Below, piece by piece: positions 11,852-39,159 of a stretch of 64,000 nt of DNA. Under the pieces are notes generated by a model. The model was not told the DNA's origin, ran no database searches, and worked only from the letters and a program-made list of their open reading frames with translations. A program made the translations under genes and the position numbers. The stretch comes from Schmidtea nova. Lineage: Eukaryota. The stretch lies in NCBI GenBank assembly GCA_044892505.1, contig CM097883.1:166656001-166720000 (forward strand), written 5' to 3'. Every line of letters begins with the position of its first letter. Position 1 is the stretch's first letter.

Positions 11852-12933
11852 TTTCTATTTTGTAGTCATTAATAATTTCTAATGTGCCAACTATTCTTCC
11901 TGTGTCTAACACAAGGTTAATAAGGGTTAAAGGTGAGATCAGCACATATAATAAAATTAAAAATAAATAAAAATTTGAAATATTTATTCGAATCAAAATT
12001 AATTGAAATTACTTTTAGGAATCTATTAGTAACTTACTTTATTGTTAATTATATTATGAATATGCATTTTTAAATTTAAAAAATAAAAATATATAAAAAT
12101 TATTTGTTTTAACAATAAATTAAAAATAGTATCATTGAATAAACACAATTATCTATCATAATTTACAATATAGTGAATTATGATAACTTTTATTTTTTAA
12201 TTTAAAATCAATATGTAGAAATAAATATGCAAATTAAAGATGTTTTAGTCAGATGTGCAACCAGAAAGAGAAATCATTTCTCTATCTAACTGCATGTGCC
12301 TATTTGATATTTGAGCTCAGATAGAGAAATAATTTATATTTTTGACCAGTGGAACTTTGTTTTTAGCAGTTTTATTGAATTTTTTACAAGGTGATTTAAA
12401 ATTTGCTGTACTTGCTTTCTTTTAAATATTGCATTTTTTGTCTAATTAAATTGGTTTTATTTTTATCGACTGAATCTTATTCTCTGCAATACATCAAATA
12501 AATCTGAAAGATATTATGTGTATTTTCGACAGTTAATATGCATTTTATTGATATGAATAAAATATTTTATTACAAATAATCTTATGTTCTATGATTTGGA
12601 TGTATTTCATTGTAAGGATTGTTTTAATTTATTTTAATAATATTACATGGATTCAATTCACTGAAATATTTTATAACTGTGATGCATATCAATCTGTCTT
12701 TGAAAAATTCTTTGAAATAATGCAATGTAAACTAATAAATATTAACTTCAAAATGTGCTTTAAAATATATTTAATTTTTATAATACGTCAACGCAGGGAT
12801 CCCCAAAGTGCGGCCCTCGAGCAATTCAAATGCGGCCCCTGGCCGAATTTTATAAATTTGAATAATTAAATTACATGGCTTTGTTTTTTAATAGGGCCAT
12901 TTTGTAACATTTTTTAACGAACTAAGTCTTGTT

Positions 12934-13630
12934 TGTGGTGATTCATGCATAGGCATCTGACCACACAGGCTATATGTGTCCAATTGACATTTTGTGGTCG
13001 CCTATATTTTGTAATTTTTGTAAAAACTTTCAATTAATTTTTATGTTTATTAATATTAATATTAATATTAATATTGGTGTTAATATTAATATTGATCGTT
13101 ATTGGTGTTAATATTAGTGTTAATTGTAATATATATATTAATAATTTTGTTTAAAAAAGAAAAATTTTTAGGGCGTTTTAATAAAAAAAAATAAACTTTT
13201 TAAAATGGATGTTGACATTTTTGATGCACTTAATTATTTGACAGGTTCCACAAAAACCAGTGCTAAATTTAAACTCTGTGATTTCAATACAATTTCAGAT
13301 TTGAAAAATTTCAATGACGACTGCATTGACAAAATGGAAGAATATATACAACTTCAGTTTTCATTGATGGGTTTAGATGAAAGATCTATCTATCTAGATG
13401 GTGATGATATACATAACCCAAAATGCTTTATGATTTCTCCTGGTTTACGCAATCGTATATTTAAAGCCGTTTCTACAATTGTTAATTCTTTAAATGGGAT
13501 TTCTTCTGTCTCATGCCAAAAGTCGATTAATTCAAATTTGATTGATCATGAATTTAAAGAATCTCTTGTCAATGAGAAATGCATCAAACCGTTGAACATC
13601 ATTCATATTCCGGACGTAGTAATCCTTACA
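12934..13630 (+). repeat. 5' LTR
   Basis: Starts TGTGGTGATTCATG and ends GTAATCCTTACA. No differences from the 3' LTR seen by eye. Confidence 0.97.
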
Positions 13631-15241
13631 ATGGTGTCAGAAGTGGGATCTGATATTCCTGTTTCTACGTCTCTACATGCGCGAGACGAAGTCGTGCGAC
13701 AGTCCGGACCACTGGAGACTCATACTCCTACTACTGCGGACGTCTGGGCCAGATTTGTTGATGTCCAGCATGTTTCTCTCGTGACAAACTACGATCTCCT
13801 CACTATCCGAGAACTTTACTTTCAAGGTAACCACATTATGTTAAATATTGTTCACCTTTTTAACTTGTGTGGTCTGGGCTTTTTGTGTGTGGTCGCCACA
13901 TTAGCACCCTTACCTGTTCCCTTATCTGGGGGGTCTAATCTCAATACACATAAGGTACCTTGCACTGACATAATGGCAAATGATCAGGGCCATGCCGCCC
14001 TATGTGCTACTGAGGGTTTTGTTTTTGTCTCAACATCAGACAAGAATCGGATACTTCCCTTTAGTTTAAGCCTATCCTTTAAAGGACTTCTCAGTTACTT
14101 AAAATATGAGAAAAATGTTTACATAAATGACACGTATGCTACATACAGGGGTTTTGTACATAGATTCGACGATCGACCCTTATATGAGCATATAAATGCT
14201 GGCGACACTATATATTTGCGGTACCGTATGCGCGGGGGCGCAGACAGCGACAATCTGTCTTTTTCAGACCAACCGCCTTCGCCTGGGACTACACAGCCAG
14301 ACATCCCAACATCAATGCACAATTTGCCCAAGATTCCGTTCTTTTTGGATCAGAACGGATCTCCTGCATCCTGGTTTTTTGTACTGGAAAGACATTTTAG
14401 GATCAGGACAATCATATCATCCTCCGAAATGTTCGACCACTTGATCACCTGTTTGCAAACGGAACTACTTTCGAAATTGGCTCATAATTTCTTGACCATT
14501 TCTACTTCTGCTGACCCGTACACAGCTCTTAAGAATCTAGTCCTCGAGAATTATCGCGAACCTAAGGCCGATATTTTCTCGCATTACTTCAAGGCACAGT
14601 CTCTCGGGTTACAACGTCCATCCGAATTCCTCAAAAGAGCCATTGATAACCTCGAATCCTTACAACAAGGTATCACTACCGACGACTCTCTGCTTCGTAG
14701 ATTTTTTTTGTCGGCTTTGCCACCTCAGACACAGGCAATATTGGCAGTTACGGAGTCAACCAACCTCCGGGATCTCGCCAATATGGCAGATAAAATCGCC
14801 GAAGCATCGGGCGTTAGCACTTCGCAACAGTGCAACCAAGTCAATTCGTTTGAGACTTTAGCCGCTGATACAGCCAGTTCAGCAAAGCGAAACATCCAGA
14901 GTTCAGATATCGTTTTGGCTGCAATTGAGCAGATATCTGATCGATTGAAGAAAATTGAGGCTCGGGATGAAAGACGGTCATCTCCGCACAGACGCACCTT
15001 TTCTCGTGAACGTTCTTTTCCCCGTTCTAAGAAGATTTGCTACTATCACGAAAGATTCGATAGAAAAGCTCAAAAATGCCACATAGGTTGCGAATATGCA
15101 GGCAGGAGTTCAAGCTGTGAGCTTTTAGATGTCTGCGTCTATCATGGGAGATACAGGCAAGCAGCCAAATACTGTTTAGAAGGCTGCAGGTATTTCAAAA
15201 GTAATCCAGCACCGCAGAACAAGTCACATCCAAAAAACTAG
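13205..15241 (+). CDS. gag: Gag polyprotein with LTR-encoded N-terminal domain and ubiquitin-like domain (678 aa)
   Basis: Uninterrupted ORF. Gag-like LPKIPFF...PASWFFVLERHF...DPYTALK region and two C-x2-H knuckle-like motifs (CYYHERFDRKAQKC, CVYHGRYRQAAKYC). UBL at 14015-14239 ends YRMRGG. An alternative start is possible at ATG 13973. Confidence 0.85.
   Translation: MDVDIFDALNYLTGSTKTSAKFKLCDFNTISDLKNFNDDCIDKMEEYIQLQFSLMGLDERSIYLDGDDIHNPKCFMISPGLRNRIFKAVSTIVNSLNGISSVSCQKSINSNLIDHEFKESLVNEKCIKPLNIIHIPDVVILTMVSEVGSDIPVSTSLHARDEVVRQSGPLETHTPTTADVWARFVDVQHVSLVTNYDLLTIRELYFQGNHIMLNIVHLFNLCGLGFLCVVATLAPLPVPLSGGSNLNTHKVPCTDIMANDQGHAALCATEGFVFVSTSDKNRILPFSLSLSFKGLLSYLKYEKNVYINDTYATYRGFVHRFDDRPLYEHINAGDTIYLRYRMRGGADSDNLSFSDQPPSPGTTQPDIPTSMHNLPKIPFFLDQNGSPASWFFVLERHFRIRTIISSSEMFDHLITCLQTELLSKLAHNFLTISTSADPYTALKNLVLENYREPKADIFSHYFKAQSLGLQRPSEFLKRAIDNLESLQQGITTDDSLLRRFFLSALPPQTQAILAVTESTNLRDLANMADKIAEASGVSTSQQCNQVNSFETLAADTASSAKRNIQSSDIVLAAIEQISDRLKKIEARDERRSSPHRRTFSRERSFPRSKKICYYHERFDRKAQKCHIGCEYAGRSSSCELLDVCVYHGRYRQAAKYCLEGCRYFKSNPAPQNKSHPKN
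13632..13649 (+). promoter_or_regulatory. Primer binding site, tRNA-Leu
   Basis: TGGTGTCAGAAGTGGGAT lies 1 nt after the 5' LTR and is the reverse complement of the typical eukaryotic tRNA-Leu 3' end ATCCCACTTCTGACACCA. Confidence 0.9.
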
Positions 15242-18200
15242 TCTCGCCATCTCTGTACGCGGCATGCACAGATGGCAATCTCTTTTCTTCTTCCCTTTCT
15301 TTTTCATTTTTTGTTTCCGCCCAAATTATTTCACCTCTCTGTACAGACATAGCACGCAACACCATACAATTTCTAGTAGACACCAGATCTAGCATCTCTC
15401 TTTTGCCCAAGTCATTGTACAGACCATGCCAACCGGGCAAATTACATTTGAGAACTGCCAATGGCAACCAGATGTACACTTCTGGTACATGCAACATCAC
15501 ACTCCGTCTGCTTGATCAAATAGTCAATTGGACTTTTCACATTGCGGAAGTCACACACCCGATATTAGGTATTGACTTCTTACAAGCGTACAGCATTACG
15601 TTAAATTGTGAGCAACACAGTTTATCATTCTTCAAGCCGATTTCAGCTTCTTCCAATGAACTTAAAACGAGTCCCAAACCTTCTTCCTGCAACGCAAAAG
15701 CCTTTGCGGTCGACAGCATTCATAATGATTTTGTTAAGAATCTCAGTTCACACAACATTTTTTCGGACATTGTGGGACCAATCAAAAGAGAAGTCAGCTC
15801 GAACTTCTGTCACGAAATTACAACTTCCGACTCGCACCCTCTCAGAGAGAGAGTTCGTCCAATCTCGGAAGACAAATATAACTTTCTCAAGACTGAGTAT
15901 GAATCTCTTTTGGCTAGTGGCATTATCCAACGATCCTCCTCACCTTGGGCCTCACCCATTCACTTCGTGACCAAAAAGGATGGATCTTATCGGATATGTG
16001 GCGATTACCGCCGCCTTAACAACATAACGCAGCACGACTCTTATCCGATGCCACTCATTAATGAATCTCTGGCGCGTTTCTCTAACTGCAAGATTTTCTC
16101 TACATTTGACCTAGTCAAAGCTTATCATCAAATCCCTGTTGCTCCACGGGATGTACCAAAAACAGCCGTCATCACTCCAATCGGTCTGTTCGAGTTCTTG
16201 CGAATGCCTTTCGGCTTGCGTAATGCAGCACAAACCTTCCAAAGGCACATCGATCACATCTTGTCAGATTTAAATTTTGTCGTCGCGTACGTGGACGACA
16301 TATTAATCGGTTCCCCCGATATTGAGACTCACAAGGCACATCTACGTAAGCTCGTAGCTACATTAAACAAAAATCAATTAAGAGTTAATTTGTCCAAATG
16401 TAAATTTTTTCAACATCAAGTTGATTTTCTTGGACACACACTATCTGCAGACGGAATAGCTCCACAATCAGCTCGTTTAGAATCCATCAGGAACTTCTCT
16501 AAGCCTGAAACTGTAACGCAGCTTCGCAGTTTTTTAGGTGTTGTCAATTATTGTCATCGATTCATACCAAATGTTTCGAATGTTCTTGCTCCGTTGACAT
16601 CACTCAGCTCAGGACCGAAACGTTCCATCGTAAAATGGACAGATAAATCCAATGCTGCGTTTGAAGAAGCAAAAAGAGCACTCGAGTCAATTCAGACTTT
16701 AGCTTACCCAAGGCATTCCCTTCCATACAGCCTAACGACAGATGCATCCGATGTTGCGGTCGGAGCTGTCCTAACTCAGTCACAAGACGGAATAGTTCGA
16801 CCTCTCGAATTCTTTTCGAAAAAGCTAACCGAAACACAGACTAGATATTCAGCTTTTGATCGCGAGCTCTTAGCCATCTTTCTTTCGGTTAAGCACTTCA
16901 AACATCTGCTGGAAGGAAAATCCACCACGGTTTATACTGATCACAAGCCGTTGGTTCACATAACTACAATGAAAGATCCTTCTCCAAGGCAATTACATCA
17001 AATCTCCTTTATCACAGAGTTCACCGGTGATATCAGACATATAGCTGGAAAGGATAACATCATAGCTGATTTTCTGTCTCGCAGTACAAACGCAATTTCG
17101 TTAGGACCTTTATTCACTACTTCCACTCTACGAGATAACAAACCAACAGAAGCCGATCTTCAGTATTTTCTACACAATAAATCAAATATCGACGGAATCG
17201 ATTTTGACTCCTCACTCTCAGGTGTACTTAGACCAATTCTTGGAACTGAGCTTCGTCGACCCGCATTTCATGCAGTTCATAACTTACACCATCCTGGAAC
17301 AACAGCCACTTATCAGCTGCTAAGAAACCAGGTCGTTTGGCCTTCTATGAGGCGAGATGTGAAACTGTGGGTTAGCGAATGTCTAAAATGTCAATGCAAT
17401 AAAGTAACCTGACACATCAAACCACCGATCACGCACTTTCCAACCGGTAACCGGTTCGATGTCGTTCACATCGATCTTGTTGGTCCTTTGCCGATAGACA
17501 ACGGTTTTTCATATCTTCTAACCATGATTGATAGGAAGACAAGATGGTTTGAAGTCGTTCCTCTACGATCCATATCAGCAAATATTGTTGCAGAAACTTT
17601 TATATCAGAATGGGTCGCACGTTATGGCATTCCAAGACACATAATTAGCGATCGAGGAGCCCAATTCGAATCGCAACTCTTCATGTCTTTAACAGAACAA
17701 CTCGGCATTAAACGGCTGCGTTCTACAGCTTATCATCCACAGACGAACGGTCTCATTGAAAGGTTTCACCGGACACTCAAGCAGTCGCTCCGAATACTCT
17801 CTTTAAATCATCGTTGGACAAAAGCCTTGCCTTTCGTTTTATTGGGTTGGAGGAACACACCTTCTAAGACGACTGAATCATCCCCAGCTCAATTACTCTT
17901 CGGTACCAACACTACGGTACCTAACGAACTAATTGACTTAGGAAATGAACCAACACTCGAAGAACTTGGCACCGCCAGACGCCATTTCCTGGATATTGAT
18001 AGCAATCCTATATTTTCGTCTGCCAACGCATACAAACCTTTTATACCAAAATCTCTATCTTCAGCCAAGTTCGTTTGGATCCGCACAATCTCGGACTCAG
18101 CGTTGAAGCCTAGGTATACTGGACCTCATCGCCTACTAGACATAATCGGAAATTACGCCACTGTCAAGATGAACGATTCATCTGAGACAATCGCTCTGGC

Positions 18201-18651
18201 ACGAATCAAACCAGCTTTTGGATTATCGGAATTCTTAGACTATAACGCCAAAGAATTCATTCCAACTCCTACAGATAATTCCTTCCAATCTGATGACACC
18301 TCTCCAAGTACCAGTCTTCCACGATCTCAGCCGGACTTGGATAGTAATATTCATTCGCCAACAACTCCTACTGAGGACACTACGTTATACCATTCCGATT
18401 TCTCTCCTACAAACCTGGACCAAGCACCTTCACACTCTGATGGTACTCACATTACCGTTAGACCCGAAACAAGCTCTTCACCTGCTTGTAGCGAGTTGCC
18501 AACTCCAGTTCCAATTTTGAAGAAATTGACACAAGTTCAACTTCCACCTGGATCTACTAGGAAGCACCGTGTTTCCATCAACCCGTGGGTGCGCGAACGT
18601 CGTATTGGGGACAATCCCAATGCTCCCACCAGACTCCACCGCATTTTTTGA
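15205..18651 (+). pseudogene. pol: Pol (protease-RT-RNase H-integrase) with one premature stop
   Basis: Motifs FLVDTRSS (protease, DTG changed to DTR), RICGDYRRLN, YVDD, LTTDASD, HHPG...CLKC and HIDLVGP...SDRG...ERFHRTLK. In-frame TGA at 17410-17412, after which the same frame continues into the integrase core. Confidence 0.93.
15232..15238 (+). promoter_or_regulatory. Putative -1 ribosomal frameshift site (A AAA AAC)
   Basis: Slippery heptamer directly before the gag TAG. The pol frame is open from 15205 and is -1 relative to gag. Confidence 0.75.
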
Positions 18652-18766
18652 AACGCATCCTCTTAACACTCCATCATTTTCTTTCTTCCTTCTTTTTCTT
18701 TTTCTTCGTTTTTCTTTGCCGCCAACACATTCTTTTCACCACACACTACTGCTCCGCAGCTTTCGT

Positions 18767-18776
18767 AGGGGGCTAA
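18767..18776 (+). promoter_or_regulatory. Polypurine tract
   Basis: AGGGGGCTAA immediately before the TG of the 3' LTR at 18777. Confidence 0.75.
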
Positions 18777-19473
18777 TGTGGTGATTCATGCATAGGCATC
18801 TGACCACACAGGCTATATGTGTCCAATTGACATTTTGTGGTCGCCTATATTTTGTAATTTTTGTAAAAACTTTCAATTAATTTTTATGTTTATTAATATT
18901 AATATTAATATTAATATTGGTGTTAATATTAATATTGATCGTTATTGGTGTTAATATTAGTGTTAATTGTAATATATATATTAATAATTTTGTTTAAAAA
19001 AGAAAAATTTTTAGGGCGTTTTAATAAAAAAAAATAAACTTTTTAAAATGGATGTTGACATTTTTGATGCACTTAATTATTTGACAGGTTCCACAAAAAC
19101 CAGTGCTAAATTTAAACTCTGTGATTTCAATACAATTTCAGATTTGAAAAATTTCAATGACGACTGCATTGACAAAATGGAAGAATATATACAACTTCAG
19201 TTTTCATTGATGGGTTTAGATGAAAGATCTATCTATCTAGATGGTGATGATATACATAACCCAAAATGCTTTATGATTTCTCCTGGTTTACGCAATCGTA
19301 TATTTAAAGCCGTTTCTACAATTGTTAATTCTTTAAATGGGATTTCTTCTGTCTCATGCCAAAAGTCGATTAATTCAAATTTGATTGATCATGAATTTAA
19401 AGAATCTCTTGTCAATGAGAAATGCATCAAACCGTTGAACATCATTCATATTCCGGACGTAGTAATCCTTACA
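18777..19473 (+). repeat. 3' LTR (carries a second copy of the LTR ORF, 19048-19500)
   Basis: Direct repeat of 12934-13630. Confidence 0.97.
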
Positions 19474-19747
19474 TTGTTGAATTACTTATCTTCAATTTAA
19501 CAATCCCATTATATTTATTTAATATTCATTTTAACAGCATTTGCCAATATAGATTTTTTATAATTCATTTGCGTTTTACAGAAATGCAAAATATCTTTCC
19601 CACTCAAAGTTAACGATGCTTTGCACCACGGTTACCTTCCTCAGTGATTTTGGCTCTTCTGAAATTGTGTTAGTGATTACACTTCCTTACGTTCGTAGTT
19701 ACGTTAATAAAACGCCATATACTTAATTTAATTTTTTTCTTCAATAA

Positions 19748-21608
19748 ATGGATGGAGCAAAAAAACGTCGCATAGCAGACGAAAGAAGGCAGTTTAAAGA
19801 AAGTTGGACAAATGACTATTTTGTTATTGAGAACAGTGAAAAGATAATTTGTTTAATATGTCAACAAATAATTTCGGTGATGAAAGAATACAATGTCAAA
19901 AGACATTATGAGACCAATCTTGAGGATTACGTTGCTTATGTTGGAGAGCAGAGAAAGCAAAAGGTGACTAAATTACAAACTGGGCTTTCAGCCCAGCAGT
20001 CAATCTTTAAAAATGTTATTAAAATCAATGAAGCAAGTACTGAGGCAAGCTACATTGTTGCTCATGAAATTGCAAAAAGATGTAAACCGTTCAATGATGG
20101 GGAATTTATAAAGGATTGCCTTATGAAAGTGGTAGATAAAGTGTGTCCCGATAAAAGAAATGCATTCAAAGGAGTCAGTCTGTCCAGTCAAACCATAACA
20201 CGCAGAGTTGAAGACATTGGCAAAGATCTTGAAAATCAACTTCAACTAAAGGCTCAAAAGTTTGTTTAGTTTTCATTGGCAATAGACGAAAGTACAGATA
20301 TTGGAGACACTGCTCAGCTATTAATTTTCATTCGTGGCATAACTGACAATTTTGAAGTTATTGAAGAAGTCTTAAAATTGTGTAGTCTAAAAGGAAGAAC
20401 GAGGGGAACGGATATGTTCGGAGCAATGTGCACAGCAATCGAGGAAATGAAATGTCAATGGTCAGCACTCACTGGAATAACTACAGATGGTGCACCGTCA
20501 ATGGTCAGCGAAAAAATTGGTCTTGTTGGTTTGATTAAAAAAAGCTGCTGAAGAAGGGCGAGATATTCTTCATTACTACTGCATAATACATCAAGAAGCA
20601 CTTGTAACGAATGTCTTAAAGATGGAACATGTTATGACTGTCGTTGTAAAAACTGTAGATTTTATTAAATCACGGGGACTGAATCATCGCGAGTTTAAAA
20701 CGTTTCTGGAAGAATCTGAAGCGGATTTTGGTGATTTGATTTATTTTACAGCTGTTCGATGGTTAAGCCGAGGTGCAACATTGAAACGTTTTTTTAATCT
20801 CAGAAACGAAATTTCCGAGTTTTTGGATTATAAAAACGAGAATAAAAAGGAATTGATTGAAAATGGACAAAATTGTTTAGTTCTGCTGCAAAATGTGAGT
20901 TGGTTGACAGATTTAGCATTTTTAGTAGACATCACTTCACTGTTGAACGAACTTAATTTGAAGTTGCAAGGCTGTGGAAAGTTTATTACTACTTTAGTGG
21001 ACAGTGTGAAATCGTTTGTAAGAAAGCTAACCCTACTGCAAAAACAACTGAAGGACGGAAATTTATCTCATTTCGTGGCTTGCACGGAGATTTCAAACCA
21101 AAACAAACAAGCTCTTGAACTTTTGCGTTCTGACAAATATTTCGAGATTATTAGCAGTTTACTATCTGAATTTGCCCGACGTTTCTCTGACTTCAGATTA
21201 CATGAAAAGTCATTTGCTATTTTCCAGAATCCATTTGCTTGTGAGCCAGATATTGCACCAACTGATTTGCAATTAGAACTGATTGACTTGCAAGAAAATT
21301 CAGAGGCGCGAACTTCATTTCATGCTTTAAGCTTGATGGAATTTTATCGAAGCCTTCCGTTTTCGGCCTATCCGTCTATTCGACAACATGCTCAGCGTAT
21401 CAGGTCACTTTTCGGAGCCACCTACATCTGTGAAAGAACATTTTCTACAATGAATATCACCAAATCCAAGATGAGGTCACGATTGACTGATAATCATCTT
21501 AGCGCAATCCTGCGCATTGCAACAACAAGCTTCGAACCTCGCTTTGGTAATATAATTTCTCAAAAATCTCAACTTCACAAATCACATGACGTTCCCCAGA
21601 AGAAGTAA
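19748..21608 (+). pseudogene. hAT transposase (GTF2IRD2/SPIN-like) pseudogene
   Basis: Motifs RQFKESW...CLIC, AIDESTD, GITTDGAPSM, CIIHQEAL, VRWLSRG and LFGATYICERTFS. Stop at 20267-20269 and a frameshift near 20545. Confidence 0.92.
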
Positions 21609-22399
21609 ATTTGATTTTGACAACTCCAAGCTAAATTCTAACAACATTTACTTTTAATTTCACTACAAACGATTTGCAAGTAACGACATTTTATGTTGAA
21701 TAAATAAATAAATTATTTTATGTGTTATTACGCAATTTTATACATTTATAGTTTTAAAAATTTAATTTCAAGCCCTTCATTAATGCTTAATTGATTTCAT
21801 ATAATTTTATTATATATCAAATATGTAAGCCTTAATTTTTATGCCTAGGCCCTAGGCTAGGGCATTTAGGGCTTGCATTTATAAGCTAAACTTGGACTAT
21901 GCGATTTTGGCGCTTGCATGATACCCTATGGCCCGCAAGACTTTATCGTGCCACTAAAGCGGCCCTCGGTATCCCACACTTTGGGGACCCCTGCGTCAAC
22001 GTAATATATTTTTGAATGTTAAGTCATTAGTTTCTCCCCGTTTTTCAATTTGATTGGTTGATAAGAATAATTTTCCTACTTTTTACTCGATTCTGATTGG
22101 TCAGAATTTAGATGTGTGTAATATCTTTAGTATATAAACAATAATCATTCATTCAATTGCCACTTTTAACAATTAGTTAACTTTAAAAGTGAGCTCCGTG
22201 AAAATGAAGAATCCAAAAAAAATTTATCTATAGTGATTCAAAAGGAATATTTTCTTATACCTTAGCAACGTCATGATGTTTTAGCAAATAGATTCACTAA
22301 TTTGGGAATATGTTATCAAAGTATTATGGAAAGGCTTAACGAAAAAAAGAAAGAAACTCGCTGTCAAACTTTATTAAATGGTTTGTTTGAAATTCTTTG

Positions 22400-26302: not shown

Positions 26303-29170
26303 TCAACAAATTTTATTTAATAAAACTGTTTCCTCTTCAGTTGGATCTTGGAATTGCTGATCTGGATTGATTCTTGGATCGATATGTTGAAATATAACCA
26401 AGTCACCTTCCATAAAATGGCCATATGCCAAGCTTTTACTTTTCGCAACCCATTTCCTTTTGTCATCTTCGTTTGACAGTCTTTTCATTTTTAATAGTAA
26501 AAAGTTTGTGATTTGTACTTGTGATTCTGGTTTGGGGAACAAAAAATATTTGATTATTATTAAAACAGTCCAGGTACGACTGATGCTTTATGTCAGTACC
26601 CGCTAATGTTGCCCCCTTAGCTTTATTAGTTTCCTCGTCACCTAAAAGACCATAACATTTAGGTCTAAGAAACACCCACTCCTCGTATTTAAGCCCTTTA
26701 TTCTCGTCTTTGAACTTGCCAATGACAGAATCAAGGTTGATTCGGATCATAATTAGAAGTGTCAAGCAAGTTATCTCTTATCATGGCCGGTAAAAGAATA
26801 TCAAGCTTACAATTTCTAATCTCAAGAAACAATGAATCGGTGTCACCAGCTACAATGTTGATTTCGCAGTTGAATTCGTTACGATATTTTTGTAACTCTT
26901 CATACTGCAGCTGGTGCATTCTAAGTTTAGATAGATCCAGTACAGTTTGACCAATGTAACTTGGTCTATCCAAACACACCGATTCCTGATTCAGCAACAC
27001 TGCAACCAAATCATCGTCAATTTCGAAAGTCCTTTTAAAAGTTGGCTTAGAAGTATATGTAATCAGCCTAGAAGCCGAATTACATAATCTTAAATTTATG
27101 CGCTTTTTAAGATTCTCTACGGTTTTACCGTAGAGACTATTATTTAATAATTTATAATAATTTTTACCCAGAGCATTACTTGATTCTGCTCTAAGTCTGG
27201 TATTGGTATATATGTAATCCTTAAAAATATATGCTTGTTTAAATTTAATTGCCCTATGGACATGAGTTATTTTTAGTCCAAGAGAAAGAAAAAGTTTGAG
27301 AAGTCTCCAATGAAGAACACAGTTCTTCTTGGGATAATGTGTAAGCATCAACTTCTCAACCTTTGAGTCAGGTGAACACATCTTTTCAGCGGCAACTGGC
27401 AAATCATCCAGCTTGTCGAGAATCGAATCAGGAATTTCTAAATCGACTTCTAATGTAAATCCAAATGTTAATACTTCTAAATCAGCAGATTGACAGTTAT
27501 AAATTATTTTATTTAATTTTTCCCTATCAGTTACCCATTTAAATTCTTTATAAGGTAGTTTTTGGCTTAAATCCCCTCCATATAAATTATTTATATCTAT
27601 ATAAAGAAGCTCAGTGTCGTCGGAAGATACTACATGATGTTTATTAACAAATGTTAACCCACCACGGATCCCCCTTTCGAAAAGATTATAAATCTCCATA
27701 TCTTGAAGCAATTCAATTAGAGATTTTAAAGTCATCAAAGCTGAATTCCATGACATGCCTGGAATTTCCAAGAAATTAAGAGGCTCAAGTCGGTTATGTG
27801 CAATGGATTTTGCCCAAAATTGCTGAAAAAAGTCGGCAAGTAAGAAAACATCCAATTTCAGATATAGCATCATATAATCAAACAATGTTTCACAAAAGAA
27901 TTCATCCCATATATGTTGAGCTTTTTCATACTCGTCAATATTAACTCCCTACCAAATCGGTGGCAACTCGTATGTTTTTTGTAAAACCTCTAAATAAGTT
28001 GAAAAATTATATAGTAATATGCCTTTGGAAGTAATAATAGTCCCTATAAATTCGGATGAAGTAAGAGGAAAATCTGTTAGTCTTTACAGCATCGTTTAAG
28101 CTACAGCTTACAAATTGGCAAGAATCGATAAATTTTATAGTTAAACTATCGACTCTTGCATTTAAAGTCAAAAACTTTTCGCTTGTAGTAGGAATACAAC
28201 TTATATCCCATTTATCGAATTTATTTAAACCATACTTGAGGATATGATGTAAATCATATCCGTGTAAATTATGAAATATTACTGGCATGATGAATCTTAT
28301 TTGCCGAGAAAAATTGCATTTTGAGCAAGCTGCACCCAAGTATTTACCTGTATAATGGTCATGATCTTTAACCGGATTTCTCAAAGGTTTATTACACAAA
28401 TAACAAATTGTAGAACTACGAAATGATCTTATTTGTGAAGAGGAAAGATATTCCATTTTCTTTTTGGAATTATTTACAAAGAATATTTATTGCCAACCCG
28501 GGGTTTTTCGCTTCAAATTTAGGAATATTACATAATTTCATTGGAAAATCAGAAGGATCAAACACAAGGTCTGAAATATTATAATTATAAGACTTACTTC
28601 TATTAGATTTCACATCCTTGTATTTTAAAATTGCCAAAATACTATATATAAGACAAAATTTATCTGTATTCTTTACATTGACAGTGCAATGTTTTGAATT
28701 TAATGATGGTGGGGTTGAACAAGAACCGTGACCACTCAATCTACTTATTTGAGAATATTTTGTAAGTTTAATGCTTATTTCTTTAATTTTATTAATTGAC
28801 CAGTTGCTGCCATTTTCGCAACCTTAGTCATTTTTTCGCTTAATAGAGCAATACCTTCATCTAAAAAGGTATCAATCATTGGCTTTGCGGAATTTGATAT
28901 TATAAAAGATTGTAATTGCTTATTCTTTTCAAATTCTACATCAATGCAAAATTGTACTTTTACATATCCCATTTTGGAAATAACTGAATTAAATTTATTT
29001 AATAAAGGCGAAGGAATAATTAATTAATTTAAATTTAAAGAATTCACATCCATTTTAACAATTGCATGCGATTTTTTCAAATTATATTTAACCAAAGGTT
29101 CAACAGAACCACAATATTGGACAACATGTAAATTAGGAATAACTAAAGCATCGTCATTTGATGAATGGAC
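26303..29170 (-). pseudogene. Protein-primed family B DNA polymerase (Maverick-type), left-arm copy
   Basis: Motifs KDHDHYTG (endonuclease VII-like Zn region), HNLHGYD, FIDS, ERGIRGG, YIDINNLYG, KLLNNSLYGKT, GDTDS, GKFKDE and LRPKCY. Frameshifts and an internal deletion near 28465. Confidence 0.92.
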
Positions 29171-29712
29171 AAGTTTTAGCTATTTAAAATAATTTTCTTG
29201 AGATTTCATTATAATAAAGTGTAGATAAAATTTAATTTCCTATAAAATAGCTTGATTCAAAATTAGGTATATAGATATGTTTGTGATGCACACGTGTTTT
29301 GTAATAAAATACTGGATTTTTTCGGCTATTTAGTATAGATTTATCGAATATGTGTATATATAATATAATTGTCTATCATATACTAATAAAAATTATAAAC
29401 GTTTTTGTGTGTTATTTGACAATTCTAATGTATTTTATCAAAATTAATTAAAATATTTTTTTATAACTGACGTAATTATTGAAATGTAATATAATTTAGA
29501 TGTAATTTACTGAAATATTTAGTCTAATATATTTTAATCATATGACATGCATGCAATTAATTGAAATATTTTATAACTTTGAAGTGTATTATAAATTGTT
29601 GAAATAACTTTTCTAGTTTTTTTAAAATACTGCAACGTAATATATATTTAGTCATAATTCTCTATCATTTTCTTGAACTTGATTTGATGATAATAATACC
29701 TTTACTGCCTCT

Positions 29713-29830
29713 TACTCGATTCTGATTGGATGATAAGAATAAATTTCCTACCCCTTACTAAATTTTTATTGGTCAAAGGTTATCTGTGTGAAATAACTTT
29801 GATATATAAACAATACTTTTTCATTCATTA
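29713..29830 (+). promoter_or_regulatory. Putative Pol II promoter module (two ATTGG boxes, TATATAAA, TCATT Inr-like)
   Basis: TACTCGATTCTGATTGG...TGTGTG.AATA..TT...TATATAAACAATA...TCATTCATT. Closely similar modules at ~22082-22155 and ~49145-49280. Confidence 0.55.
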
Positions 29831-30780
29831 TTCACTTTAACAAATAATAAACATTTAAAGTGAACATTATAACAAGTTTTATGAACGAAAACCCAATTGG
29901 AAAAGAAAATGGTAAATTTATTTTTTAATTTATTATCATTTAGTATTAATTTAGATAATATCAATAATTAAATTGGGAAATCGATGTTAGAAAATGCGGG
30001 AAAAAATGGTACTTAATCATTAAGTTAGTAAATTATTTAACTTTTACTTTAGGTGATGTAAATATGACTGAACAAACTACCGTACAAGCTGAGATTGTTA
30101 ATAATGAGAATATTATGAATAATGGAGTTATCCTTGATGTGGTATTGAATGTTTAATGTAAGTATTGATTAATTTTAATTAATTTAATTATATTTTGATA
30201 ATTATTTTAATCAATTTAGTAAATAACTTTAGTAAAATATTTGTAAATATATATTTTTGGTAATATTTAGTAATAATTTAAATAATCTTTACTTTACGTA
30301 AACAGTTAATTTAAACAAATTCCTTTAATAGGAATTTGTAGTAAGTTTTATATTAAATTTAAATTATTTTAGTAATTATTATATTTAAATCATATTTATC
30401 TTAAATTTCATATTTATTTTCTAATAATTTATATTTTTATTAATTTATTTTAATGATTTTTTGATAAATTTAAAGATATTTCATATTAAGGTAAATTTTA
30501 TCCGAATTATTGTAATTCAACAAATCATAACGACTGTCACAAGTTAATGGAGCAATACTATCGTTTTATAAATAACCAAGTCACCTTCTATTTATGTCCC
30601 ACATGTAAGAGCGCCCAACATAACACATACATTGATTTTTATTTCCAACATTATTTCCATTTAAATTAATTCTCATGCACTAAGAAAAGTCTTTTCGCAT
30701 TAATAATTAAAAGTAAACGATGCAATGTTACTGTTTGTCCTAAACCATCAAAAAGAATTGTATTATCCGATGATGAAGAT

Positions 30781-33700
30781 GTCCATTCATCAAATGACGA
30801 TGTTTTAGTTATTCCTAATTTACATGTTGTCCAATATTGTGGTTCTGTTGAACCTTTGGTTAAATATAATTTGAAAAAATCGCATGCAATTGTTAAAATG
30901 GATGTGAATTCTTTAAATTTAAATTAATTAATTATTCCTTCGCCTTTATTAAATAAATTTAATTCAGTTATTTCCAAAATGGGATATGTAAAAGTACAAT
31001 TTTGCATTGATGTAGAATTTGAAATGAATAAGCAATTACAATCTTTTATAATATCAAATTCCGCAAAGCCAATGATTGATACCTTTTTAGATGAGGGTAT
31101 TGCTCTATTAAGCGAAAAAATGACTAAGGTTGCGAAAATGGCAGCAACTGGTCAATTAATAAAATTAAAGAAATAAGCATTAAACTTACAAAATATTCGC
31201 AAATAAGTAGATTGAGTGGTCACGGTTCTTGTTCAAACCCACCATCATTAAATTCAAAACATTGCACTGTCAATGTAAAGAATACAGATAAATTTTGTCT
31301 TATATATAGTATTTTGGCAATTTTAAAATACAAGGATGTGAAATCTAATAGAAGTAAGTCTTATAATTATAATATTTCAGACCTTGTGTTTGATCCTTCT
31401 GATTTCTTAATGAAATTATGAAATATCCCCAAATTTGAAGCAAAAAACCCTGGACTGGCTATAAATATCCTTTCATATGTCGAGTATGATCTAAATAATA
31501 TTAATGAGGAGGAGGTAGTCATGAAACATCCATTTGTAGATATTATTCATAGGTCAAAGGTTGTAGGTGGCACTCCAATTAATTTGATTTTTTTAGAGGA
31601 AAATGACTCTTTTCATTATATTGCAGTTACCAATATTAATAGACTTTTGAATTGTGGCACTCTTTCTGTTACTGATGTTCAAATAAGGCTCACTTGGTGC
31701 GAGCGTTGCTTGAATGGTTTTAGATTGACTGAAGCTTTTGAAAAACATCAGGCTTTATGCACAAAAAACCAGTTAGGTACAACTTTGTACACTTTAATTT
31801 CAGATAAGAACTTGGAATTTAAAGATTGGTCGAAAATTGTTACCCCTCCTTTCGTTGTATATGCCGATTTTGAGGCTGTTTTACCGAAGGACAATAAGTA
31901 TTTTCAACGTCACTTGCCTATTTCTGCTGGCTTGTTGCTTATTAATAACTTTACTGGCGAAAAATCTTATAACAGCTTTTATGGTGTTAACTGTGTAGAA
32001 GAGTTTTTGACTGAAATCAATGATATAGGAGAAAAAGTAATTTTGCCTTACTTTATAAATAATTCCAAAAAGAAAATGGAATATCTTTCCCCTGCACAAA
32101 TAAGATCATTTCGTAGTTCTACAATTTGTTATTTGTGTAATAAACCTTTGAGAAATCCGGTTAAAGATCATGACCATTATACAGGTAAATACTTGGGTGC
32201 AGCTTGCTCAAAATGCAATTTTTCTCGGCAAATAAGATTCATCATGCCAGTAATATTTCATAATTTACACGGATATGATTTACATCATATCCTCAAGTAT
32301 GGTTTAAATAAATTCGATAAATGGGATATAAGTTGTATTCCTACTACAAGCGAAAAGTTTTTGACTTTAAATGCAAGAGTCGATAGTTTAACTATAAAAT
32401 TTATCGATTCTTGCCAATTTGTAAGCTGTAGCTTAAACGATGCTGTAAAGACTAACAGATTTTCCTCTTACTTCATCCGAATTTATAGGGACTATTATTA
32501 CTTCCAAAGGCATATTCTCATATAATTTTGCAACTTCTTTAGAGGTTTTACAAAATACATACGAGTTGCCACCGATTTGGTAGGGAGATAATATTGACGA
32601 GTATGAAAAAGCTCAACATATATGGGATGAATTCTTTTGTGAAACATTGTTTGATTATATGATGCTATATCTGAAATTGGATGTTTTCTTACTTGCTGAT
32701 TTTTTTTCAGCAATTTTGGGCAAAATCCATTGCACATAACCGACTTGAGCCTCTTAATTTCTTGGGAATTCCCGGTATGTCATGGAATTTAGCTTTGATA
32801 ACTTTGAAATCTCCAATTGAATTACTTCAAGATATGGAGATGTATAATCTTTTCGAAAGGGGGATCCGTGGTGGGTTAACATTTGTTAATAAACATCATA
32901 TAGTATCTTCCGATGACACTGAGCTTCTTTATATAGATATAAATAATTTATATGGAGGGGATTTAAGCCAAAAACTACCTTATAAAGAATTTAAATGGGT
33001 AACTGATAGGGAAAAATTAAATAAAATAATTTATAACTGTCAATCTGCTGATTTAGAAGTATTAACATTTGGATTTACATTAGAAGTCGATTTAGAAATT
33101 CCTGATTCGATTCTCGACAAGCTGGATGATTTGCCAGTTGCCGCTGAAAAGATGTGTTCACCTGACTCAAAGGTTGAGAAGTTGATGCTTACACATTATC
33201 CCAAGAAGAACTGTGTTCTTCATTGGAGACTTCTCAAACTTTTTCTTTCTCTTGGACTAAAAATAACTCATGTCCATAGGGCAATTAAATTTAAACAAGC
33301 ATGTATTTTTAAGGATTACATAGATACCAATACAAGACTTAGAGCAGAATCAAGTAATGCTCTGGGTATAAATTATTATAAATTATTAAATAATAGTCTC
33401 TACGGTAAAACCGTAGAGAATCTTAAAAAGCGCATAAATTTAAGATTATGTAATTCGGCTTCTAGGCTGATTACATATACTTCTAAGCCAACTTTTAAAA
33501 GGACTTTCGAAATTGACGATGATTTGGTTGCAGTGTTGCTGAATCAGGAATCGGTGTGTTTGGATAGACCAAGTTACATTGGTCAAACTGTACTGGATCT
33601 ATCTAAACTTAGAATTCACCAGCTGCAGTATGAAGAGTTACAAAAATATCGTAACGAATTCAACTGCGAAATCAACATTGTAGCTGGTGACACCGATTCA

Positions 33701-34045
33701 TTGTTTCTTGAGATTAGAAATTGTAAGCTTGATATTCTTTTACCGGCCATGATAAGAGATAACTTGCTTGACACTTCTAATTATGATCCGAATCACCCAT
33801 TATATAGTAGGAACCTTGATTCTGTCATTGGCAAGTTCAAAGACGAGAATAAAGGGCTTAAATACGAGGAGTGGGTGTTTCTTAGACCTAAATGTTATGG
33901 TCTTTTAGGTGACGAGGAAACTAATAAAGCTAAGGGGCAACATTAGCGGGTACTGACATAAAGCATCAGTCGTACCTGGACTGTTTTAATAATAATCAAA
34001 TATTTTTTGTTCCCCAAACCAGAATCACAAGTACAAATCACCAAC
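30781..34045 (+). pseudogene. Protein-primed family B DNA polymerase (Maverick-type), right-arm copy
   Basis: Same motif series as the left arm, split across ORFs 30979, 31212, 31521 and 32681. Keeps a ~580-bp segment that is deleted in the left arm. Confidence 0.92.
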
Positions 34046-34900
34046 TTTTTAATATGAATAATAAATTATACTAACAAAAGTAAATTAATAATATTTTTAA
34101 AAAACACTAATTAAAAAAAATTAAATAATAAAAAATAATAAATTTATTAATTAATAAAAAAAAATAATAAAAAATTCCAAACATTTTAACAAAACACACT
34201 TTAAAATTGGCGCCAAAAACGCGCGATAACTCATACGGATCCAGACCTGACACTGTCTCCTACTAACAATCAAAGGTGAATATGAGAACAATTAAATAAC
34301 TAATGAAGGAAAATAAATTTTATAATTTAATTTAATATATAATTATTAATATAATAATTAATAATAATAATTAATAATATAATTTAATTCCAAGTTTCTC
34401 ATTATTATTACGTATTTTTGCATTCTTTGTCTTCATTTCTATATTTTTCATTAAGTCTTGTTTATTTGTCTCGCTGTTACTGTATCATTTTGATTTATTA
34501 ATTATTATGCAAATATTATATGATTTCTAAAGGTGAAAGTTCAATCTTTTTGTTTCAATTGTTGCGCATTATATTTCTAGTAACATCTCAGTTTAACTAT
34601 TTCTACTTCAATCTTCTAGTAATGTGGTAATAAAATTCTAGTTCGATTCCCAAGGGCTCTGTCAATTCTTTCATACTATTTGCCTAAAAGTTCAATTTTG
34701 CATTTGCCTTTCATATTAGCACTACTATAAAAACTTTGATCTTTGGAAAATCTAAACTTGACTATGGCTGCGCGTGATATAAATAAATAACTAACTAATG
34801 ATATGCATTTAAAATTGCATTATATTCTTAAACACAACGTTTTTCAAATTCTATTTTTACCACATTTTCATCATATTAAAACAACATTAATTGTTTAATA

Positions 34901-37684
34901 TTACATTCTTCCTACATCCCCACCAGATTCATCTGAATCTTTAACAACTCTTTTTCTAATATCGCCCACGTGTCGTGGCATATCGTATCCATTACATCTG
35001 ACTAAAAATTTTGTATTTGATAATGGTTTGATGATAAGACCATCTTTCCATCTTTCTGTGAATTTTTGGTTCATATTCGGTTTTATCCATACAGGGTCAC
35101 CAGCAGAATATTTTGCTTCGACTAATATCTCTTTTTTATTGTAACTTGGCAAATTCAGCTTTGGATTATATCTAAATATAGCTCTAGATGGACAAATATT
35201 ATTGTTGTTTGGTGTATTGTTGAACCAGTACACAGCTTCTGCGATTGATCCTGAGGACCTAGCTGCTAGCGATTTGATTGTCCGATGGCTGCGTTCAATG
35301 ATCCCGTTTCCCCCTGGACGGTTCACTGTTCTAAATACCAACTCAATATTCCATTTATCTGCTAATTCTTGAAATTTTCTAGATCTAAAAGATAAGTAAT
35401 TATCTAACAATATTTCACTTGGAGCTCCTCTTTCATATAACACTTCATTTAAAGCATTACATATCTCTTCTACATTTTCATACTTAATTTTCTTCCAGAT
35501 TGCATATCTCGATGGTCCACAATCAATGATTGTCAAATACTTATCTTTAGCAAATTTAGCTACATCAATTTCTAAACGGCACCAATTTTCATCACAGCTT
35601 AGTTCACCTTTTTACCACGTTACTGGCGCTGGGTCAATTGATAAGCATTGATTACAACTTGCAATTATTTCTGAGATCTCATTATCCACATTCAGTAGCC
35701 CCGCTTCCGATGCTAAGAATCGCATACGATTTTTCCCTACATGGCAATTCTTGTGAATCTCTAATAACACATCTTTTGAGCTTTTTTGATTGCCTAGAGC
35801 TGCGACTTCTTTTTTAATAATCATCCAGTTGGCTGGTACTCTCGTTAATACATCAGCCTTGTTATTTTTTGTAGATACAAACTCAATGTCCATTTTAAGT
35901 TCATACTCAGTCGCTAAATCTTTTAAAAGCTGCAGCCTTCGTCGTATTAACAACTCTGAATTTGCTTTTGTATGTATTTTTCTGTCGCTTGATAATATGC
36001 TGTTAACCCAACATACAACTGATTTACTATCGGATTTAATTTTGATGTACTTTAACTTCCATTTAATACATAAATTAATACCCTTCACAATCGCTTCTAA
36101 TTCCACCAAATTAATGTGTCTTGAATCATCAGGTTTTCGCAACCAACACGCATCTTCAACCACTGAACCTTCCATTTCTAATACAATTCCAATGGCGATC
36201 GAACTTGCATCACACCAAATTATGCCTGTCTGGTTGCTGGGAACACTCCAAATACCTGACGATGGATCTCTTTCATTCACTCTTTCTAATAACCATTTTA
36301 CTTTGTCAACGATATGATTTTCTATTGAATCATCCCAATTTCCACTGGATAGCCTCTTGATATATGAGCAAGCTGGCCGCAACCATCCAGACACAGGATA
36401 AATTCCAACTAACTGGCCACATAACGAATACAGCTCTCTTCTTGAAAGCCCTTCATTCAATTCATTCATTCGAATATCGTTCGATCTTTTCCAATGTAGT
36501 TCATTATTCTTTCGAAATACATCAATACCTAATACTCTTATACTGAGAGTACCCTTGACCTTTTCTTCTTCTTTACATATCAAACCAAATTTACGCATTT
36601 CTGCACTTACTTTACTTGCTTTGACTTTAGATTCATCTACGAATATATCGTCTATGTATGAACTCGTGCTATTCTTGATTGATTCATTGTTGTTCAATAC
36701 TTTATTCACAATCTCTGTCATTATCGTTGGCGCGATATTCAATCCAAATCCCATTCTCGTAAGCGCATATCTCTTCCCGTTAACCATACAAGATTGATAT
36801 CGCCACATACTTTTATCCACGCGTATTTGCATATATGCATCAGATAAATCTAACATTGCAAATTCTTTACTTAAACATCTCCATGATCGTAATTTTTCAG
36901 AACAGATATCTGCATTCCCACTATATACATCAATATATTTATTGATACTCCTAAAGTCAAATACTGGACCCACTTTCGCTTTATTTAACTGAATTATACC
37001 ATAAATAGGTACTGATCCGATCGGTTTGCCCATTGTTTTCTCGTCATAATCAACTAGATAGCTGTTAGATATCCAAGATTTCAAGATACGCCTCGTCTCC
37101 TGATCCTTACTACAATTATCATAAAAGTTTGAATTTCTATTAGGTAGAAATTTCGGTGGCTCTGACTTCCAATCCCATTTGACAATCCATTTCTCGTTTT
37201 CAAATTTCGCAGAGAAATTTTCCTTCAATATTTCTGACATGCTGCTACTAGAGCACGCTACGTGACAAAGTGCTTCTTCACAACCGAATATGGCTTCTTT
37301 ATTCAATCGAACTCCACCAAACCTATTAATAGCATTAACTCCTAAAATTACATCATAATTGGATACCAGTTTCGGGTATATTAAACAATCAATATTAAAT
37401 AACGTATCTCCAACCCATATATCAACTTTACTTCGCTCAGCGTATATGATTGAACCATCAAGCATCGCTACCGCAGTCATAGATTTTCGTGGATTTCCTT
37501 TTACTATAGTGATAGTGCTGCCCGAATCAACTAAACATGCTTTTACATTACCATTAACTTTTAGGAGTCTCACATATTCACAATTCTTGGGGCAACACCC
37601 GACTCCACATTGTGTGTAGCCCCTTGATCTTTTCCCGACTTGCAAAACCTTGAAATATGTCCCATAATACCGCATTTTGCACAT
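34901..37684 (-). pseudogene. pol: Pol (PR-RT-RH-IN) with premature stop
   Basis: ORFs 35612-37684 and 34901-35536 are in the same frame, separated by TAA at 35612-35614 (W*KGELSCDENW...). Confidence 0.9.
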
Positions 37685-38148
37685 ATGATGTTACGTCTTT
37701 CTGGACAGTATCTTACCACATGATTAGCACTATTGCATATATAGCATTTTCGATTGGCTTGTCTTCCATTATCTGATCTTGGTACTACTACTGCAACCGT
37801 TTCATTGTCATAAATTTGATGACTTGCAATTTTCTTTGCTTGAGAGACTAACTCATTCATTGTTGACGCTGTTGACATCTTTAGTTGATTTGCCAAATCA
37901 CTTGGTAAGCTATTTACAAAAAATCGGGTTAATAGATCACCTGAACATTCCAACAGTGACCTTAATTCATTTACATGGACATCCATGTTATCACCCATTA
38001 ATAACTTTTTCTGTAAAAGTTTCGTAAAAGCTTCTTGCTCGCTCATACCGAAGGTTTTCAATAATTCCTTCTTCAGCATACCAAACTCCATTGTCGTATT
38101 GCTTTTCTTTAACTGTTTGAAAACTGCATAAGATTGCCCTTCAAGTAA
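37570..38148 (-). pseudogene. gag: Gag, 5'-truncated
   Basis: Knuckles CYICNSANHVVRYC and CAKCGIMGHISRFC. The frame continues upstream of the ORF call (FLLEGQSYAVFKQL). Possible -1 slippery site G GGA AAA at 37630-37636. Confidence 0.85.
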
Positions 38149-38922: not shown

Positions 38923-39100
38923 ATGAGTCATCGCCGAACAAAGGAAATGACGTCACCCCCCGGGGGAGGGAGAGAATTTTTTTATGACTCATCGATGACA
39001 TCATCGATGACTCATCGGTATGACTCATCGGTATGACTCATCGATGACGTCATCGATGACTCATTTCAAATTTGAATTTTATGACGTCATCGATGACTCA
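38923..39100. promoter_or_regulatory. Terminal array of AP-1 (TGASTCA) and CRE (TGACGTCA) motifs, left arm
   Basis: 7 TGA(C/G)TCA and 3 TGACGTCA in ~180 bp. The right arm (52858-53000) has 6 and 2. Confidence 0.6.
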
Positions 39101-39159
39101 TTTCAAATTCAAATTTTAAATTTGAATTTCCAAAGGTCAAATAAGGTCAAACCTTCAAA

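Follow-up and report, generated by a model that had tools for sequence, protein, structure and literature searches.

Host-derived coding pieces held in Gag register within the LTRs of a Ty3/gypsy lineage

Related systems

Long terminal repeats (LTRs) are usually treated as non-coding, and the known forms of host-gene capture cost a retroelement part of its ORFs. In Ty1, the LTR-encoded part consists of a few fixed element codons. The primer binding site (PBS) of Ty1 is located inside the GAG ORF, so that a coding PBS is already known (PMC4974528, passages on Ty1). This feature is shared by the Ty3/gypsy lineage described here, which, unlike Ty1, carries 90-250 swappable host codons and a ubiquitin-like (UBL) domain, the latter being absent from Ty1.

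In LTR-mediated retroposition, spliced host mRNA is joined at microsimilarities with a median of 6 bp, is re-amplified and forms multi-source chimeras, as described in the relevant parts of Tan et al. (2016, PMC5131818). The lineage studied here resembles these retrocopies in its pieces of spliced host mRNA, the short junction microsimilarity, the later re-amplification and the chimeras of several sources. However, the retrocopies treated in those parts of the report replace internal ORFs, whereas here gag and pol are left in place, the cargo lies inside the LTR and is copied to both ends as well as to solo LTRs, and it supplies an ATG of its own and stays in frame with Gag. Entry of foreign sequence into an LTR by abnormal template switching is known from BARE-2/Veju; in contrast to the present case, the BARE-2 insert originated in a different retrotransposon and provided a new promoter class, and the passages on BARE-2/Veju mention neither a host coding piece fused to Gag nor serial swapping (PMC13317346).

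The glyco-Gag of MLV likewise extends Gag N-terminally in frame and includes a hydrophobic segment; according to the sections of PMC3042739 dealing with it, the extension is a fixed viral leader of 88 aa initiated at a CUG, and the product is a type II membrane protein made beside normal Gag. In the present lineage, by comparison, the extension is host-derived, its ATG lies inside the LTR and a UBL precedes Gag. Ubiquitin insertions of pestiviruses are cleaved by host hydrolases. In cytopathic pestiviruses, a ubiquitin-like unit stands directly before a viral protein, as it does before Gag in our elements, and is linked to the release of that viral protein, but these are sporadic insertions in an RNA virus (PMC13517609, in the part concerned), whereas the UBL described here is old and fixed and the variable part lies upstream of it. 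Gypsy polyproteins with host-like domains, including a Ubi2/SUMO-like one, have been described for the giant planarian elements Burro/GYPSM1, which are larger than 25 kb and have an N-terminal Gag with the extra domains downstream (PMC6431247, passages on these elements). The element described here measures 6.5 kb and has its UBL upstream of Gag and its cargo in the LTR. In a literature search that covered mainly the main text of open-access papers, no description of in-frame host cargo in LTRs or of a UBL-GG-Gag precursor was found; ubiquitin is not mentioned in PMC13524379.

Architecture of the element and origin of its LTR cargo

The element occupies positions 12934-19473 (~6.5 kb) of the window, i.e., of the whole stretch of 64,000 nucleotides that was analyzed, and has the paired TG...CA LTRs, target site duplication (TSD), PBS and polypurine tract of a Ty3/gypsy LTR retrotransposon (Table 1). 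Going by the Cys/His pattern of its Gag, it may belong to the CsRn1-like clade. Pfam matches place the Pol domains in the expected order, with the protease match under its cut-off, and an in-frame stop (17410-17412) is located within the integrase. No tRNA genes were found within the 64-kb stretch.

Table 1. Features of the Ty3/gypsy element and positions in the window.
Feature	Position	Strand	Remark
TSD TTGTT, 5 bp	left 12929..12933, right 19474..19478	.	
5' LTR, 697 nt	12934..13630	+	same sequence as 3' LTR
LTR front common to family, probable U3/R, AATAAA at 13180	12934..13188	+	
Captured 5' end of 298-aa host gene	13189..13615	+	422/427 identity to donor
SAM-like helical domain, passenger from donor gene	13205..13510	+	
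Residual element-derived LTR end, read in frame	13616..13630	+	
PBS, inside ORF, read MVSEVG	13632..13649	+	sequence
Coding leader, family-shared, copies ~97% alike	13631..14008	+	
Hydrophobic run, marginal membrane segment	13835..13924	+	KD 2.12
UBL domain ending ...RMRGG	14009..14239	+	profile match to ubiquitin; GG invariant
Gag proper: DUF7041 at aa 386-454, Cys/His C-terminus	14240..15241	+	
Pol PR-RT-RNase H-IN, frame other than Gag's	15241..18651	+	Pfam order
Polypurine-tract-like run, 5' of 3' LTR	18766..18776	+	
3' LTR, 697 nt, cargo repeated	18777..19473	+	ORF 19048-19500 enters flank

A preliminary description of this locus had reported an AAAATGG start at LTR position 272 (13205), downstream of AATAAA, which opens 142 codons up to the LTR end and continues through the PBS and the leader into UBL and Gag. 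All of this was recovered: AATAAA is present at 13180 and 13190, the frame is stop-free from 13169 to 15239, and the ORF (13205-15241, 678 aa) comprises 142 LTR codons and 128 codons of PBS and leader, followed by UBL and Gag. Judged from base composition, the probability of encountering no stop is 1.5e-5 for the LTR codons and 2.4e-3 for the leader codons. The hydrophobic run in the leader (aa 211-240; KD in Table 1 is the best 19-aa Kyte-Doolittle mean) is also real and includes His and Asn, and the 3' LTR repeats the ORF and extends it into the flank, there by eight sense codons and a stop. The TATATATA run noted upstream of the start does exist (13130-13137), but it is missing from the printed LTRs of types B, C, D, and E (see below) and therefore gives no evidence of a promoter.

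The LTR peptide had further been likened to a SAM-like domain. A SAM-type helical fold was indeed found, although the domain turned out to be a passenger that is 99% identical to a host-side gene; searches for a SAM family sequence match returned no Pfam or PDB profile hit, and matches to Atlas SAM clusters (0.82 and 0.76) are leads only. The donor of this cargo (type A) is located at G000:C1:73294159-73294585 and has diverged paralogues. The captured stretch contains 16 nt of the donor 5' leader, the ATG and 137 codons, and its junctions show the microhomologies AAATAAAC and CCGGAC. The LTR front is closest to the type-D LTR lineage (93% over nt 1-210). Since the donor stretch is intron-free, we infer the RNA origin of the type A cargo by way of its sister cargos. 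Two other explanations of the match were rejected. That the gene might derive from the LTR is at odds with a donor that is a full ORF with a C-terminal Cys/His motif, with paralogues that are 25-45% identical and with the limitation of the donor-window match to 427 nt; an assembly artefact is contradicted by independent loci with TSDs and by a 427-nt contig of run X3 with identical bounds. Contigs of run X1, from another organism, cover the internal region, the LTR front and part of the type-B ORF, while the gap at cargo A is uninformative.

The donor family itself (L041-L044 and L053-L060, at G000:C1:73.1-73.3 Mb and dispersed) consists of single-ORF genes (265-700 aa) that carry a SAM-like domain at the N-terminus and, in most cases, a Cys2-His2-like motif at the C-terminus. 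The genome contains some 40 weaker matches, and the family corresponds to no Pfam family.

Cargo exchange, capture junctions and Gag register

Of the first 30 loci retrieved, 10 showed full-length matches to the query, and in the other 20 the match began only at the LTR end. Exact-pattern searches yielded 50 leader matches and 126 LTR-start matches, of which only part was fetched for typing. The fetched loci of this family (family 1) fall into nine LTR types, A to I. Their internal regions are colinear and ~97% identical, and the cargo is confined to both LTRs. Donors are in hand for types A, D, E, F, and H, not for B, C, G, and I. Type B codes for 91 aa, with a tail common to C, E, F, G, and H; no donor was recognized for it among 82 matches, judged from the match table only. 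The type D cargo is the N-terminus of PP2A-A (PDB E 3e-58), type E is an internal piece of MCM8 (MCM and WHD_MCM8 domains), type F is a FERM piece, and type H is derived from a protein kinase. These four cargos correspond to donor exons joined without introns at 95-100% identity to the genomic donors, and must therefore have passed through an RNA intermediate. The introns lost are two for PP2A-A (one of them in the 5' UTR), two for FERM, at least three for the kinase and three for MCM8, so that the absence of donor introns known from LTR retrocopies applies to 4/4 sister cargos with intron-bearing donors. The PP2A-A cargo was shortened by two later deletions of 21 and 20 codons, and the LTR frames of MCM8 and of the kinase contain one stop each. 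Several cargo lineages have spread after capture; a PP2A-A search, for example, gave 42 matches, the majority in LTRs.

Three LTRs of unusual structure were seen as well. The chimeric LTR at L076 (G000:C1:396.157 Mb) contains PP2A-A cargo, a PBS-like remnant and a C/B tail, all in frame. A 3' LTR (L228:718-3270) and a solo LTR (L102:931-1668) continue in frame, over 851 and 246 codons, respectively, into ORFs that by eye resemble the pol of other retroelements.

Exact microhomology of 6-14 nt, again as in LTR retrocopies, is present at 7/10 junctions, while the other three, all 3' junctions, are located at donor exon ends and were left unscored. The runs shared by parent LTR and donor measure at least 8 nt (A 5'), 6 nt (A 3'), 7 nt (D 5', D 3' and H 5'), 7 nt within a 12-of-13 match (E 5') and 14 nt (F 5'); with random position pairs as the null, the probability of 6 nt or more is 0.002-0.012 per junction. 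The 5' junction lies at, or no more than ~20 nt after, AATAAAC in types A, C, D, and H, ~80 nt upstream of this motif in F and G, and ~50 nt downstream of it in E.

Register with Gag was scored at 57 distinct LTR/PBS junctions, 56 of which could be typed, one LTR being interrupted. The preliminary description had proposed to check whether the frame persists in other copies. It largely does, with 51/56 typed junctions in register and 49 free of stops between cargo marker and PBS; 33 are open up to GG, including L082 and L083, which end in MLGG. The five exceptions are two type B copies with frame-shifting deletions and three type I copies of one tandem array, which is off by one base and in which a stop closes the cargo frame 1 nt upstream of the PBS ATG, whereas the type I locus L104 is in register. 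Outside the count, two more junctions (L116, L232) keep the register and one of type B (L236) is frameshifted. Because copies inherit their frame, only independent events provide a real test. The independent captures with known donor (D, E, F, and H) are in register in 4/4 cases, for which simple arithmetic gives 1/81; including C and G, which are themselves defined by their long ORF, the count becomes 6/6 (1/729). Type A was left out, as it selected the finding.

During reverse transcription, strong-stop DNA is made from the 5' end of the RNA and comprises the stretch from AATAAA to the PBS, which is then present in both LTRs. With a probability of roughly 70%, we consider that this part of the Ty3/gypsy LTR is a slot for Gag-framed host pieces which are likely captured by template switching, translated and removed by deubiquitinase cleavage at GG. 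Reverse transcriptase would prime at the PBS, copy 15-200 nt of U5, switch at a match of 6-14 nt onto a co-packaged host mRNA and transfer back to the 3' end of the element RNA near AATAAA, whereby the host piece would replace U5. The cargo would then supply the first AUG of the genomic RNA, and only captures in register would make Gag well and spread, i.e., translation would select the frame. Cleavage after GG by host deubiquitinases, predicted by analogy to ubiquitin fusions, would yield a constant Gag. Unrelated cargo might be tolerated because this cleavage would release the same Gag whatever lies upstream. Type A keeps 15 element bases after its cargo, which makes a downstream promoter hard to place; the cargo is thus likely to be transcribed, with its AUG first. 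The SAM-like domain of the element at 12934-19473 is one such passenger. The phenomenon is more general than the preliminary description had recognized, namely a form of template-switch gene capture with a candidate release mechanism.

The UBL, distant relatives and further families

Twelve aligned UBLs are only 11-26% identical, with GG as the sole invariant feature. A UBL profile (A3) matches ubiquitin with an E value of 4e-10, the match ending at G76, whereas a Pfam search with the UBL of the window element alone gave no match. The UBL ends in Gly-Gly as in ubiquitin-fusion precursors. Four distant Gags (P0001-P0004; 37-50% identical) keep a UBL ending in GG as well. In P0002, P0003, P0004, and L185/L186, the open frame crosses a PBS-like sequence, which is translated in three different frames among them, and the metagenome loci L185 and L186 are open for 85-90 codons upstream of the PBS. 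A Gag search of the genome, in which 86 of 9,501 candidates were scored, showed the two further families described below and a third group (L155-L166 and L170) with a UBL and decayed upstream frames.

These data also bear on whether the cargo is translated at all. The captures could be real but untranslated passengers, with Gag starting at the ATG that overlaps the PBS or at Met257, upstream of the UBL, and the frame match being inherited chance. In favor of this, Gag is open in some copies whose cargo is out of register (L079, L207), so that initiation at the PBS ATG might be enough; the type I tandem array has its stop just 5' of this ATG, Met143 and Met257 are each flanked by A at -3 and G at +4, the gene call of P0001 begins with a Met where the UBL starts, and a dN/dS analysis of the cargo protein gave no result, the copies being too young and the changes too few. 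Nevertheless, we regard this explanation as unlikely, since all six independent captures besides that of the window are in register, as are the two later deletions, and since P0002, P0004, and L185/L186 are open for 50-90 codons upstream even though their PBS ATG is off the Gag frame. Furthermore, if the LTR is transcribed, scanning ribosomes would be stopped by numerous upstream AUGs. Translation of the cargo as part of a cleavable precursor remains the reading that we prefer.

Two further families in the same genome (reverse transcriptase 61-64% identical to that of the window element) have cargo duplicated in both LTRs. Forty loci from the Gag search were picked, partly with preference for long frames; they serve as illustration and were excluded from the register count. 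Family 2 (L188-L207, L223-L227, and L238-L242) has N-termini of NOMO, PCMT and an acid phosphatase in its LTRs and Gag precursors of ~920 aa. A hydrophobic, signal-like peptide (KD 1.41-2.46) opens each of its three cargos, a start that, judged by eye, is absent from family-1 cargos. The N/S/Q-rich leader with about a dozen NxS/T sites is followed by a strong hydrophobic segment (KD 2.35-2.45) just before UBL-GG-Gag, and the precursor is predicted from these sequence features to be a type I membrane protein. Acid-phosphatase copies are out of register in 2/3 cases, one of them with an 810-codon frame still open into Gag. Family 3 (L208-L215 and L241) has two LTR cargos and additionally in-frame pieces of O-GlcNAc transferase (OGT) between PBS and UBL (Glyco_transf_41, E 1e-93, and TPR); its LTR of 1.1 kb extends ~780 nt upstream of the cargo frame. 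The hydrophobic maximum in family 3 and in P0001-P0004 does not exceed KD 1.58.

The preliminary description had suggested that SAM-like domain, membrane segment and UBL could precede Gag in a precursor loosely analogous to membrane-anchored glyco-Gag; on this model they would form a functional accessory Gag. The SAM-like fold and the hydrophobic run of the window element are compatible with such a protein, and so are the signal-like starts, the NxS/T sites and the strong segment of family 2. However, the SAM cargo is found at only 10/56 typed family-1 junctions and is nearly identical to a host gene, the leader of the window element has no NxS/T before aa 308, and the strong segment is missing from family 3 and from the four distant Gags. 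A fixed viral leader starting at CUG was not found either; the start is an ATG in the LTR, and the N-terminus varies among copies. A glyco-Gag-like function of the whole arrangement therefore appears highly improbable, and the original interpretation is partly supported.

A further explanation is that swapping is favored mainly because it allows escape from small-RNA silencing or provides a good host 5' UTR, the frame serving only to avoid a blocking upstream ORF. This would fit how often and how recently unrelated cargos without common protein function have replaced one another (nine types in one family), as well as their 95-100% identity to the donors, and it is compatible with the capture steps proposed above. 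Taken alone, it explains neither the invariant GG nor the bias of family 2 toward signal-like starts, and we consider it quite improbable as the main cause. Capture followed by translation and release at GG would account for the slot better in our estimation.

Tentatively, this mechanism may be extended to the view that a gypsy lineage has given up its fixed 5' module and instead starts translation on borrowed, exchangeable host mRNA 5' ends that are kept in the LTR. The borrowed parts would possibly comprise the UTR, the start codon, the first domain and, in one family, a signal peptide. Release at the UBL would make Gag indifferent to its cargo, the LTR would act as a machine for exon shuffling and solo-LTR minigenes, and in one family Gag may stay membrane-tethered until deubiquitinases act. 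Capture as seen here is recurrent, confined to the LTR and probably filtered by frame. Its products form a natural archive of template switches during first-strand transfer and of the host mRNAs that enter particles, and a Gag maturation step that depends on a host protease is predicted. Truncated N-termini, for example of PP2A-A, are spread in this way and could affect the genes concerned via small RNAs or dominant fragments, and cargo-bearing LTRs will mislead gene annotation.

The surroundings of the element are rich in other repeats. The retroelement sits within a hAT-type DNA transposon (12794-21993) with terminal inverted repeats and an 8-bp TSD, CGTCAACG, the transposase of which is broken (ORFs 19748-20269 and 20622-21608, with a Spin-doc zinc finger and a hAT dimerization domain). 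Large, near-perfect inverted duplications at 26484-34065 and 39050-52910 have arms of up to 1.8 kb that are 98-100% identical and carry polymerase-like as well as unknown ORFs in both orientations. Labelled by eye from their translations, a second gag-pol retroelement (35612-38091, minus strand), a hAT/BED transposase (57212-58615, minus strand), a non-LTR reverse transcriptase with an endonuclease-like end (58788-61215, plus strand) and a mariner-like fragment (62717-63271, minus strand) are also present.
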